Source: an uncultured delta proteobacterium (GTDB taxonomy: Bacteria > Desulfobacterota > Binatia > UBA9968). From it: a stretch of 64,000 nt of DNA. A program made the position numbers and the translations under genes. The notes beneath the pieces were generated by a model that did no database searches, had not been told where the DNA came from, and saw only the letters and a list, made by a program, of their open reading frames with translations. The stretch lies in contig CAWDPO010000034.1 in the NCBI GenBank assembly GCA_963804165.1, positions 99,689 through 163,688 on the forward strand, in the 5' to 3' direction. Of the stretch, positions 58,713 through 64,000 are shown piece by piece. The stretch's first letter is position 1, and every line of letters starts with the position of its first letter.

Positions 58713-59710
58713 GGGGTCAGACTTCTATAAGTTGACTGTCTTGGGAGGTCTTGATAAGGAGTTGCATCATGGCGCGCCGTCCCCGACTATTTGCCGCGGG
58801 GGTTCTCTATCATGTGATTGTACACGGCAACCAGCGGCAGAAGACCTTCACTGCGGAAAGTGATTATCACGCCTATATTGAACGGCTGGCACGGTACCGC
58901 AAGAAATATGACTATGTGTTGCACGCCTACTGCCTGATGCCCAACCATGTCCATCTGCTCGTTGAAAGCTCCGAACAGCCACTGGCGAAATTCATGCAAG
59001 GGCTGCAACAATCCTACAGCCAATATTTCAATCGTAAACATCGCAAGACCGGACACGTGTTTGAAGGGCGCTACAAAGCAATCCTTTGCCAGAAAGACGA
59101 GTATCTCCTTCAGCTGATCCGTTATATTCATCTCAACCCGGTGCGCGCCTGCATGGTCAGAAGTCCGGAGCGCTATCGTTACTCGGGTGATCACGTTTAT
59201 CTGCAGGGGAAGGCTACGGAAACCATAGATCCGGCGACCGTTCTATCGATGTTGGGAGGGAAACAGGCCTATCGAAGGTTTGTTCAAGACGGTTTGAGCG
59301 AAGGGCATAAGGAGGAATACTACGCGGTGGAGGACCAGAGATTTCTAGGCGCCGAAGGGTTCGGAGAAAGGTTGCTGAAGAAGGAACCGGGTTTGTCGGG
59401 CAAAAAGCTGACCCGGCGGTCCATCGAGACGGTGGCGAGAGAGCTGGCGAAGCTATTGAAAATTGATGTCCAAGCGCTGCGTAGTCGGGATCGGGGTTGG
59501 GCGATATCGAAAGCGCGCACGATAGCGGCGTACGTATTGGTTCGGAGACTTGGCTATCGGTTAAGCGATGTGGCGGCCTATTTTGGCAGAGACATGGCGA
59601 CACTCGCGACCTTACTCGCACGGCTGAGCGATCGGATGCAAGCAAATGATACGGCCAGACGGGAGATCGAGCGGCTGAACGAGATAGTTGAGTCGTAGAA
59701 GTCTGACCCC
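58713..59710 (+). mobile_element. RAYT element with 15-bp terminal inverted repeats, copy A
   Basis: ggggtcagacttcta (58713) / tagaagtctgacccc (to 59710). Confidence 0.85.
58769..59698 (+). CDS. REP-associated tyrosine transposase (Y1 HUH) with C-terminal HTH
   Basis: MARRPR, YHVIVHGN, YCLMPNHVHLL, HVFEGRY, RYIHLNP. Confidence 0.92.
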   Translation: MARRPRLFAAGVLYHVIVHGNQRQKTFTAESDYHAYIERLARYRKKYDYVLHAYCLMPNHVHLLVESSEQPLAKFMQGLQQSYSQYFNRKHRKTGHVFEGRYKAILCQKDEYLLQLIRYIHLNPVRACMVRSPERYRYSGDHVYLQGKATETIDPATVLSMLGGKQAYRRFVQDGLSEGHKEEYYAVEDQRFLGAEGFGERLLKKEPGLSGKKLTRRSIETVARELAKLLKIDVQALRSRDRGWAISKARTIAAYVLVRRLGYRLSDVAAYFGRDMATLATLLARLSDRMQANDTARREIERLNEIVES

Positions 59711-59748
59711 GTTTCTCCTTCCGTTTCTCCCTCGCACTGGCCCTTCTT

Positions 59749-60135
59749 TTAGCCGGAACAGGACTTGCACTCGCCAAAGAATGCCAACCGATGGGAGGTC
59801 ACGGTGAAACCACCCTGGAGCAGGGAGGCGGGCAGGATCTCTTCGCCCTTATCGACTAAGATGTCATACACCCGTCCACAGGTCTGGCAAATGAAGTGCT
59901 GGTGCGAGTCCACCAGCGGATCGAAGTGCTGCGTCCGACCCAGGGTCAGCACCTGGAGTTTCCCTTCAGCCACCAGTTTCTGCAGATTATGATAGACCGT
60001 ACCGAGACTGATAAGGGGGATATGCCTGCGCACCCTTTGGTAGATCTGATCGGCCGTGGGATGCGAGTTGTCGCCGACAACCTCGTTCCACACAACTTCA
60101 AGCTGCCTGGTCTTTCTGCCGGTGCTTTTCTCCAT
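59749..60135 (-). CDS. Fur family transcriptional regulator (PerR/FurA-like)
   Basis: HPTADQIY, SLGTVYHNL, HQHFICQTCG, CKSC; adjacent to katG. Confidence 0.9.
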   Translation of the reverse strand: MEKSTGRKTRQLEVVWNEVVGDNSHPTADQIYQRVRRHIPLISLGTVYHNLQKLVAEGKLQVLTLGRTQHFDPLVDSHQHFICQTCGRVYDILVDKGEEILPASLLQGGFTVTSHRLAFFGECKSCSG

Positions 60136-62595: not shown

Positions 62596-63010
62596 ATCGA
62601 TCCTTCTCCTTTCTGGTTGTGTTCCCCGCAACTAATGACAGATAGCGAGGTCCTTATATCTTACCGCTGATTTTGCGCCGCCCGGGACCGCATCGAGGTC
62701 CAGCGGCACGGCAGTCGCGCATGTGCCATACTAGACGCTAACGTTCTATGAATATGAACTGACGCCTACAACCGACAGCAAATAAAGTCAATACTTATGG
62801 CGACGCATTCTCCACAAAGCGGTGTCGTGGCTAGCCGCGTGAATGAAATCGTGGGGCCCGTTGCGCGAGCGCGGGAAAGACTTGGGGTCACCCATTAGAA
62901 GGCAGTTACAAGAGGCAAAGACATTCCTGTGAAATAAATTTCTTTATTTCTTTTCCGCTCAACCCGCTTGGTCCGTGATCGTTAGTTACGCGTCCCTGGG
63001 TAAAAGCTAT

Positions 63011-64000
63011 GGGGTCAGACTTTTATAAGTTGACTGTCTTGGGAGGTCTTGATAAGGAGTTGCATGATGGCGCGCCGTCCACGACTATTTGCCGCGGGGG
63101 TTCTCTATCATGTGATTGTACACGGCAACCAGCGGCAGAAGACCTTCACTGCGGAAAGTGATTATCACGCCTATATTGAACGGCTGGCACGGTACCGCAA
63201 GAAATATGACTATGTGTTGCACGCCTACTGCCTGATGCCCAACCATGTCCATCTGCTCGTTGAAAGCTCCGAACAGCCACTGGCGAAATTCATGCAAGGG
63301 CTGCAACAATCCTACAGCCAATATTTCAATCGTAAACATCGCAAGACCGGACACGTGTTTGAAGGGCGCTACAAAGCAATCCTTTGCCAGAAAGACCAGT
63401 ATCTCCTTCAGCTGATCCGTTATATTCATCTCAACCCGGTGCGCGCCTGCATGGTCAGAAGTCCGGAGCGCTATCGTTACTCGGGTGATCACGTTTATCT
63501 GCAGGGGAAGGCTACGGAAATGATAGATCCGGCGACCGTTCTATCGATGTTGGGAGGGAAACAGGCCTATCGAAGGTTTGTACAAGACGGTTTGAGCGAA
63601 GGGCATAAGGAGGAATACTACGCGGTGGAGGACCAAAGATTTCTAGGCGCCGAAGGGTTCGGAGAAAGGTTGCTGAAGAAGGAACCGGGTTTGTCGGGCA
63701 AAAAGCTGACCCGGCGGTCCATCGAGACGGTGGCGAGAGAGCTGGCGAAGCTATTGAAAATTGATGTCCAAGCGCTGCGTAGTCGGGATCGGGGTTGGGC
63801 GATATCGAAAGCGCGCACGATAGCGGCGTACGTATTGGTTCGGAGACTTGGCTATCGGTTAAGCGATGTGGCGGCCTATTTTGGCAGAGACATGGCGACA
63901 CTCGCGACCTTGCTCGCACGGCTGAGCGATCGGATGCAAGCAAATGATACGGCCAGACGGGAGATCGAGCGACTGAGCAAGATAGTTGAGTCGTAGAAGT
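63011..64000 (+). mobile_element. RAYT element copy B (right end cut by window edge)
   Basis: Starts ggggtcagacttttataag; near-identical to copy A; ends tagaagt. Confidence 0.85.
63067..63996 (+). CDS. REP-associated tyrosine transposase (Y1 HUH)
   Basis: Differs from copy A at only a few residues. Confidence 0.92.
   Translation: MARRPRLFAAGVLYHVIVHGNQRQKTFTAESDYHAYIERLARYRKKYDYVLHAYCLMPNHVHLLVESSEQPLAKFMQGLQQSYSQYFNRKHRKTGHVFEGRYKAILCQKDQYLLQLIRYIHLNPVRACMVRSPERYRYSGDHVYLQGKATEMIDPATVLSMLGGKQAYRRFVQDGLSEGHKEEYYAVEDQRFLGAEGFGERLLKKEPGLSGKKLTRRSIETVARELAKLLKIDVQALRSRDRGWAISKARTIAAYVLVRRLGYRLSDVAAYFGRDMATLATLLARLSDRMQANDTARREIERLSKIVES

Follow-up and report, generated by a model that had tools for sequence, protein, structure and literature searches.

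Direct TIRtron copies around a perR-katG operon in an uncultured soil bacterium of the Binatia

The DNA analyzed here, referred to as the window, is a stretch of 64,000 nucleotides (positions 99,689 to 163,688) of contig C34 (163,688 bases) in G000, the metagenome-assembled genome (MAG) of an uncultured soil bacterium. The MAG consists of 46 contigs and is 81% complete, with an estimated contamination of 5%. Near its right end the window carries two 998-bp units, copies A and B, of an element that its sequence identifies as a TIRtron: a TIRYT gene, encoding a RAYT-like HUH/Y1 nuclease with a DnaA-domain-IV-like helix-turn-helix (HTH), located between terminal inverted repeats (TIRs). The copies share one orientation, lie 4.3 kb apart, and bracket the genes of a Fur-family regulator and the catalase-peroxidase KatG. 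The initial annotation had described this near-identical direct pair around the two genes, and its coordinates and content proved correct. The final base of the window is also the final base of C34, so about 8 nt of the TIR-bounded unit are missing from copy B, as is the whole of its right flank. Comparisons were made with other genomes, among them G012, G015, G017 and G037 of the same genus as well as G003 and G014; G005 was counted only in genome tallies (katG matches, the stub and the LBF_2804 family, TIRtron relatives, and the tct and 210-nt searches). The features of the locus are listed from left to right.

51825-51911, plus strand: right-end remnant, the last 87 nt of a B-like TIRtron (94%), 6.8 kb left of copy A
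57236-58324, minus strand: Exo_endo_phos-family gene (Pfam), part of a block at 57235-58578
58465-58712, plus strand: N-terminal stub of an LBF_2804-family gene, about 77-82 of about 373 codons, stopping at copy A
58684-58712, plus strand: GGAAAAATCTTGGG in two tandem copies of about 14 nt, directly next to the left end of copy A
58713-59710, plus strand: TIRtron copy A, 998 bp, with left TIR at 58713-58741 and right TIR at 59682-59710
58769-59698, plus strand: TIRYT gene of copy A, 309 aa, intact, with Pfam Y1_Tnp (E 3e-17) and Bac_DnaA_C matches
59735-62672: perR-katG block, 96% DNA identity to G037:C68:7453-10374
59749-60171, minus strand: Fur-family regulator, PerR-like from profile matches
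60376-62631, minus strand: katG, catalase-peroxidase (TIGR00198, NF011635)
62884-62998, plus strand: 115-nt sequence beginning GGGGTCAC, 12 nt left of copy B
63011-64000, plus strand: TIRtron copy B, with left TIR at 63011-63039, ending about 8 nt short of the right terminus at the contig end
63067-63996, plus strand: TIRYT gene of copy B, 309 aa, intact, with Y1_Tnp and Bac_DnaA_C matches

The direct repeat was detected at 58700-58999 and 62998-63297, and the alignment of the two copies is near-identical from GGGGTCAGAC (58713 and 63011) to the end of the window. There are 12 mismatches in the 990 element positions covered by copy B, or 15 in 1003 positions when 13 nt of upstream flank are included. 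The 29-nt TIR arms start with GGGGTCAG and form an imperfect inverted repeat, which in copy A is 79% complementary and perfect over the first 13 nt. The TIRYT gene of copy A has a ribosome-binding site (AAGGAG) 7 nt 5' of its ATG, and its TAG stop codon lies inside the right TIR. In the encoded protein the HUH motif is found in NHVHLL (H60, H62), and Y119, N123 and P124 are found in RYIHLNP. Residues H60, H62, Y119 and N123 were invariant in 21 of 21 homologues, and P124 was conserved at 90% or more.

The TIRYT protein scored 82.8 bits against the NCBIfam model REP_Tyr_transpos (cut-off 80) and 28.3 bits against transpos_IS200 (cut-off 55), too low for an IS200 equivalog. The Pfam Bac_DnaA_C match (E 5e-7, 30.1 bits) was slightly below the gathering score of 31.5. 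Because a phmmer search of PDB with the single TIRYT protein returned no match, structural relatives had to be found with a 21-sequence profile. Profile positions 208-304 matched the DnaA domain IV structures 2hcb, 1l8q, 3pvp and 1j1v (E 1.9e-6 to 5e-5), and the N-terminal 140 residues matched TnpA_REP 4er8 with E 0.0034, compared to E 0.27 for the IS200-type TnpA 2xm3; 4er8 was the best transposase structure match of the profile. Elements of this kind were named TIRtrons, and their genes TIRYTs, by Di Nocera, De Gregorio and Rocco (2013), who described the TIR motif GGGGWSAS (PMC3733652). In the classification of Quentin et al. (2018), TIRYTs form subclass 2.1.2 of TnpA-Y1 class 2, have a Bac_DnaA_C-like tail, and share the class-2 signature Y---NP (PMC6006769). 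The element in the window is a further member of this class as described in 2013 and 2018. Among 40 loci of full-length homologues from species-representative genomes, TIRs with at least 11 matched nt and spanning about 1 kb were present at 33, with the exact GGGGWSAS motif at 19 and one G fewer at 7. The closest homologue loci were labelled Candidatus Binatia or 'uncultured delta proteobacterium' MAGs, and TIRYT relatives at E 1e-20 or better numbered 4334.

The initial annotation had called the element a RAYT, a kind of gene whose well-studied members spread repetitive extragenic palindromes (REPs). A search of G000 with the terminal 29-mer, allowing up to 6 mismatches, matched only element ends (5 of 5 matches), and the 13-mer with up to 1 mismatch gave 4 extra matches, compared to about 9 expected by chance in our own calculation from genome size. 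With the 29-mer confined to element ends and the 13-mer within chance, G000 has no REP/REPIN population, and the dispersed, abundant REP/REPIN family typical of a REPtron is missing. Nor is the gene single-copy and vertically inherited, as it is in a REPtron: three copies are present at 96-99% identity, and synonymous divergence (dS) of TIRYT is far below that of rpoB. With no REP family, several copies and an extra DnaA-like domain, the REP-spreading type gives way to a TIRtron with its TIRYT. The account of class 2 given by Quentin et al. reports low intragenomic copy number and no evidence of mobility (PMC6006769). Of the RAYT groups of Bertels, Gallie and Rainey (2017), Group 1 behaves most like insertion sequences (IS): 6.3% had near-identical duplicates, the highest share, and some copies were on plasmids (PMC5581495). 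Going by these two accounts, RAYT-like genes in several copies are unusual but have precedents.

The distribution of copies indicates that the whole TIRtron transposes and crosses species. G000 holds three full copies, A, B and C, and one remnant, all with unrelated flanks; copy C (C1:179985-180994) lies on the opposite strand and is 96.7% identical to copy A. Full-length relatives were found at non-homologous sites in G037 (95-97% identity), G012 (89%) and G015 (two copies, 87%), and a partial copy was found at a contig end in G017. The G037 TIRtron sits in DNA that has no counterpart in G000. When seven copies from four genomes were aligned, identity began at the GGGG tip, which is GGG or GG in two of the seven, and ended at the CCCC tip, and the flanks were unrelated. 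For TIRYT, dS between G000 and the other genomes was 0.10 (G037), 0.33-0.35 (G012) and 0.41-0.45 (G015), compared to saturated rpoB values of 1.17, 1.70 and 1.65, respectively. This baseline for species divergence is one locus, rpoB with its flanks, at which G000 and G037 are 84% identical in DNA. All TIRYT copies are intact, with dN/dS of 0.13-0.26 in a set that excludes the rows of one G015 copy. In addition, public metagenomes contain many relatives at 92-96% identity whose contigs, at 1.0-1.5 kb, are about as long as the element itself, as is typical of repeats. The earlier claim that the element had moved is therefore borne out by multiple copies, unrelated flanks and cross-species identity above the rpoB baseline. 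That it moved recently holds in relative terms only, with dS of 0.026 between A and B and about 0.06 between either of them and C.

Nearby copies lie on the same strand in three genomes: the remnant, A and B in G000, the two copies in G015, and a copy and a fragment in G037. A strand-specific single-strand mechanism, such as that of IS608 and ISDra2, would give same-strand neighboring copies. A tmRNA gene was observed on G037 contig C23 (L114 842-1194), about 5.4 kb upstream of the G037 TIRtron, with a 96-nt TIRtron fragment between them. More distant relatives are present as well. The window itself encodes a diverged TIRYT paralogue at 30612-31427, which is 35% identical to the copy A protein and lacks a detectable TIR. 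It is one of eight diverged paralogues in G000 with at least 200 residues covered and 33-43% identity, and 7 of 12 diverged loci have TIRs of their own.

None of the 30 copies read is flanked by a direct repeat, in keeping with insertion that leaves no target duplication. CTWT or CTTT occurs just 5' of the left tip in 5 of 7 close copies, too few to name a target. At the left junction of copy C about 19 nt, among them the first 8 nt of the TIR, are duplicated in tandem, analogous to the 14 nt at copy A. In several distant relatives an additional GGGGTCAG-like motif lies 8-12 nt beyond an end. An 8-bp bulged hairpin is possible at the left end, although it is weak (-4 kcal/mol, z -1.0) and no better than those of shuffled sequences; at the right end no hairpin was better than shuffled sequence (z of the end folds from -1.0 to +0.95). 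An empty site for copy A was sought in 30 other genomes of the genus, none of which contains a homologue of the stub or any LBF_2804 member. For copy C, the left flank is common only over 149 nt with another G000 locus; this segment (within C1:180994-181300) is 97% identical to C12:53190-53337. Translated by eye, the left flank of copy C resembles what we take to be the HTH part of an IS3-type OrfA. In Logan contigs from four soil runs, each of which contained at most 0.45 of the sampled words, element ends were seen next to other flanks; these contigs contained no circle junction, although contigs cannot show rare circles and so are silent on excision.

The operon between the copies was examined in the same way. 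KatG scored 1112.5 bits against TIGR00198 (cut-off 770) and 1261 bits against NF011635 (cut-off 981), at equivalog level for both, and translation probably begins at the ATG 36 nt downstream of the TTG that is listed as the start. The best PerR models gave the Fur-family protein 81.5 and 75.5 bits, below their cut-offs of 200 and 180, and Pfam FUR gave 67.7 bits against a cut-off of 23.1; the protein is therefore described only as Fur-family and PerR-like, and its gene is called perR here. Between G000 and G037, dS was 0.034 for perR, compared to 1.17 for rpoB. The katG gene of G003 is 91% identical in DNA to that of G000 with dS 0.23, compared to an rpoB dS of 3.1, and for the Fur gene beside it a six-frame match of 50 residues shows only about 34% identity. 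Matches to katG were found in 8 of 18 genus genomes drawn, several of them fragments or with stop codons, and perR and katG are linked at about 80% DNA identity in two genomes from another family of the order. The G+C content of katG is 63.5%, compared to 55.8% for the genome. In synteny comparisons with G003, G014 and G018, only katG or the phosphatase-family gene matched, and the flanks did not. The low dS of perR and katG relative to rpoB, together with the differing flanks, indicates that the operon has been horizontally exchanged between species. The comparison thus did not return a katG-fur pair that is syntenic and vertically inherited, the result that the initial annotation had named as speaking against its idea.

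In G037 the perR-katG module is followed by 24-26 nt and then by a 446-nt remnant of a different katG (80% identical), and a divergent LysR gene precedes. This arrangement looks like replacement of a resident katG, and the same junction was present on Logan contigs from three soil runs of three studies. The G037 katG on C68 (L120 6976-10354) is split into three overlapping open reading frames (ORFs), being either decayed or affected by sequencing indels. The G037 operon sits without a TIRtron, and no TIRYT-like gene was found in the 18-20 kb fetched around katG (about 7.5-10 kb on each side) in any of five genomes, G019, G023, G003, G037 and G014. In G000, the shared block ends 25 nt from the inner end of copy A and 338 nt from that of copy B, and the 338-nt gap includes the 115-nt repeat, which is multi-copy in other species. 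This 115-nt sequence has a start, GGGGTCAC, that fits GGGGWSAS, and it holds the inverted repeat GAAATAAA-TTTC-TTTATTTC. It has 9 matches in G012 and 7 in G017, with only two weak matches of its own in G000, and is possibly a gene-less derivative of another TIRtron.

Copy A had also been described as truncating an upstream gene, and this description stands: the stub at 58465-58712 ends at copy A and the remainder of the gene is absent from the assembly. The ORF corresponds to positions 1-66 in the LBF_2804 family, which has 352 positions; with P0121, a relative of 373 aa, it aligns over residues 1-77 at 71% identity, and the match ends 17 nt or less from copy A. Six-frame searches of the 46 contigs with the family model and with P0121 found only the stub, and the family was not found in the 30 other genus genomes searched. 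No contig start or end in G000 carries the element tail or overlaps the end of C34. Two soil metagenome contigs are 97% identical to the window over 57235-58578 and contain the same stub, but in them unrelated DNA takes over sooner, at 58578; L021, the one of the two that reaches the left end of the block, also diverges left of 57235. The same stub cut at another point, within other flanks, marks 57235-58578 as itself a shuffled accessory block.

Other repeats were observed further to the left. An amidase gene at 55732-57073 is split into two ORFs (55741-56331 and 56377-56895), and the 1.34-kb amidase segment has three copies in G000 (C34, C17 and C28) that are 89-92% identical to one G037 segment. 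Synteny with G037 at the amidase was considered and rejected on account of these three copies. A dispersed intergenic repeat at 6945-51790 consists of a palindrome with 14-nt arms, TTCGACGTTTCGAG AATT CCCGAAACGTGGAA, followed by a TTGAAC-rich sequence. The window contains about 18 of these repeats, which are in minus orientation as far as about 39.2 kb and in plus orientation from 39.4 kb onward, and many more occur on C12, C2 and in other species of the genus; an operator, a cassette boundary and a miniature element are candidates for its nature. Rfam gave no match in window positions 50000-64000.

A second direct pair was found in G015. Two direct TIRtron copies, 97.6% identical and 6.9 kb apart from start to start, bracket a 5.9-kb TctC-EamA-TctA-TctB-TctC operon. 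This locus was the only one of the 40 homologue loci with a full second copy within 10 kb. Elsewhere in the genus the tct operon gave a single weak match, and none exceeded 65% identity in DNA. The pair directly adjoins the last repeat of a 24-repeat CRISPR array accompanied by a Cas4-Cas1 fusion gene, and that repeat lies 18 nt from the right end of one TIRtron copy. The fusion gene and the array, with repeats of 35-36 nt, are at 939-4860 of the fetched locus (L113, G015:C9:283000-300500). About 210 nt beside the other copy (L113 12781-12991) are conserved at 75-87% in 18 of 31 genus genomes, with a second copy in G015, and had no match in Rfam.

We favor, as the probable history of the locus, short-range same-strand transposition of a TIRtron into an already mosaic island that held perR-katG. 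In this reading the unit transposes whole, without visible target duplication, and is exchanged among species of the genus; its movement may proceed by single-strand cleavage and rejoining like that of IS200 and TnpA_REP. The A-B pair would then stem from a short-range, same-strand hop of one copy, made within a patchwork of horizontally acquired DNA that already contained perR-katG, and copy A would have landed in, or later become joined to, the stub of the foreign LBF_2804-family gene. Although the pair is laid out like a composite transposon and might function as such, perR-katG got into other genomes without it. At the informative sites, A sides with B 28 times and with C 10 times, and B sides with C at 2. 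The 28 sites make A and B sisters, which argues that the pair arose locally, and the conflicting sites suggest gene conversion among the copies.

Several points weigh against this history. Simple insertion of copy A would leave the remainder of the interrupted gene after A; perR is found there instead, which calls for at least one further event, such as a deletion, a recombination or a composite insertion. Insertion is deduced from the flanks of the copies alone, as an empty site was found for none of them. Finally, the G015 pair with its own cargo makes a habit of pairing around cargo less easy to dismiss.

A less likely, though possible, history is that the pair acted as a composite transposon: its two outermost ends, left in A and right in B, were used jointly to insert the 5.3-kb A-perR-katG-B unit into the LBF_2804-family gene, the other part of which would then lie past the end of the contig. 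In the IS200/IS605 model, a one-strand Y1 enzyme could use distant left and right ends. The copies are direct with both genes intact, the cargo is horizontally mobile, and a composite insertion explains why the gene does not resume after A and why its remainder is missing from all 46 contigs, in addition to echoing the G015 pair around the tct operon. Against it, none of the five other katG loci has a TIRYT-like gene nearby, and the G037 module, beside its older katG remnant, fits homologous replacement. The shared block also stops 25 and 338 nt inside the elements, with another repeat in between, and the 12 differences between A and B mark the pair as not newly formed. Only 1 of the 40 homologue loci has another full copy within 10 kb, and the right flank of B lies beyond the contig end. 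The proposal that the pair mobilized an oxidative-stress module is therefore upheld as far as the operon is shared horizontally; nothing shows that the pair carried it.

Homologous recombination between dispersed copies is less probable again. Here A, B or both would be recombinant, and an inversion, deletion or translocation would have brought perR-katG to the stub. The copies are mosaic, A agreeing with C against B at 10 sites and B matching the G015 outgroup at several, and both the missing remainder of the interrupted gene and the patchwork around it (the block at 57235-58578, 97% identical within other flanks, and the amidase segment present three times) speak for it. However, the 28 sites that group A with B fit a plain duplication, and the assembly contains no reciprocal product.

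It is very improbable that B is an assembly artefact, produced at the contig end by mis-joining or duplicating a repeat. The contig does stop inside B, and the MAG has its estimated 5% contamination, but B carries ten private differences from A and C, where a duplicated or collapsed repeat would equal its source; moreover, the left junction of B lies in unique sequence upstream of katG, and no other contig begins with the element tail. We give least credence to the view that these are domesticated, immobile paralogues kept for a host function like classical single-copy RAYTs: purifying selection, the 8 further diverged paralogues, the 7 of 12 diverged loci with their own TIRs, and the low copy number and lack of mobility evidence in the published account of class 2 (PMC6006769) would suit it, yet identity stops exactly at the TIR tips in 7 copies of 4 genomes with unrelated flanks, and cross-species identity is far above the rpoB baseline.

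Class-2 Y1 proteins, the RAYTs and TIRYTs, are widespread, and to our knowledge no TIRYT has been examined biochemically. Here, intact and near-identical copies, sharply defined ends, clear transfer between species and two pairs around cargo come together in one lineage, which provides a concrete substrate of 1 kb for asking whether and how TIRYTs transpose, and what role the DnaA-like domain plays. On the host side, the locus shows peroxide defense by perR-katG to be part of the exchangeable gene pool in these soil bacteria. A bolder and rather doubtful proposal is that these Binatia TIRtrons are active class-2 (RAYT-type) Y1 elements that capture host operons between two direct copies and carry them along, perR-katG in the window and a tct transporter in a sister species. 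If it were true, a cargo-mobilizing TIRtron would be the first natural evidence of RAYT-class enzymes moving cargo genes, and cleavage and rejoining would have left the short tandem duplications at left ends as their footprints.

Compared with known systems, the element is closest to the described TIRtrons, with which it shares a Y1 HUH domain with Y---NP, a C-terminal HTH of the Bac_DnaA_C type, GGGGWSAS TIRs at a fixed short distance from the gene, and the lack of a REP family. It differs in having three whole copies and a remnant, cross-species identity far above that of the core genome, and two direct pairs around cargo. REPtrons, the E. coli-type RAYT or TnpA_REP with its REP or BIME sequences (structure 4er8), have a homologous catalytic domain and inverted sequences flanking the gene, whereas the present element is without dispersed REPs or REPINs, is not single copy, and has the additional DnaA-like domain. 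Group 1 RAYTs, in their published description (PMC5581495), are the RAYTs that behave most like IS elements.

The IS200/IS605 elements, such as IS608 and ISDra2, are likewise one-gene Y1 HUH elements without visible target duplication whose copies cluster on the same strand. By analogy, a common single-strand mechanism is likely. The present element differs in that TIRs take the place of subterminal hairpins and the transpos_IS200 score is far under its cut-off. Composite transposons of the Tn10 and Tn5 type share with this locus the arrangement of two copies of one IS around adaptive genes; in the window the copies are direct rather than inverted, and the enzyme is a Y1 rather than a DDE transposase.

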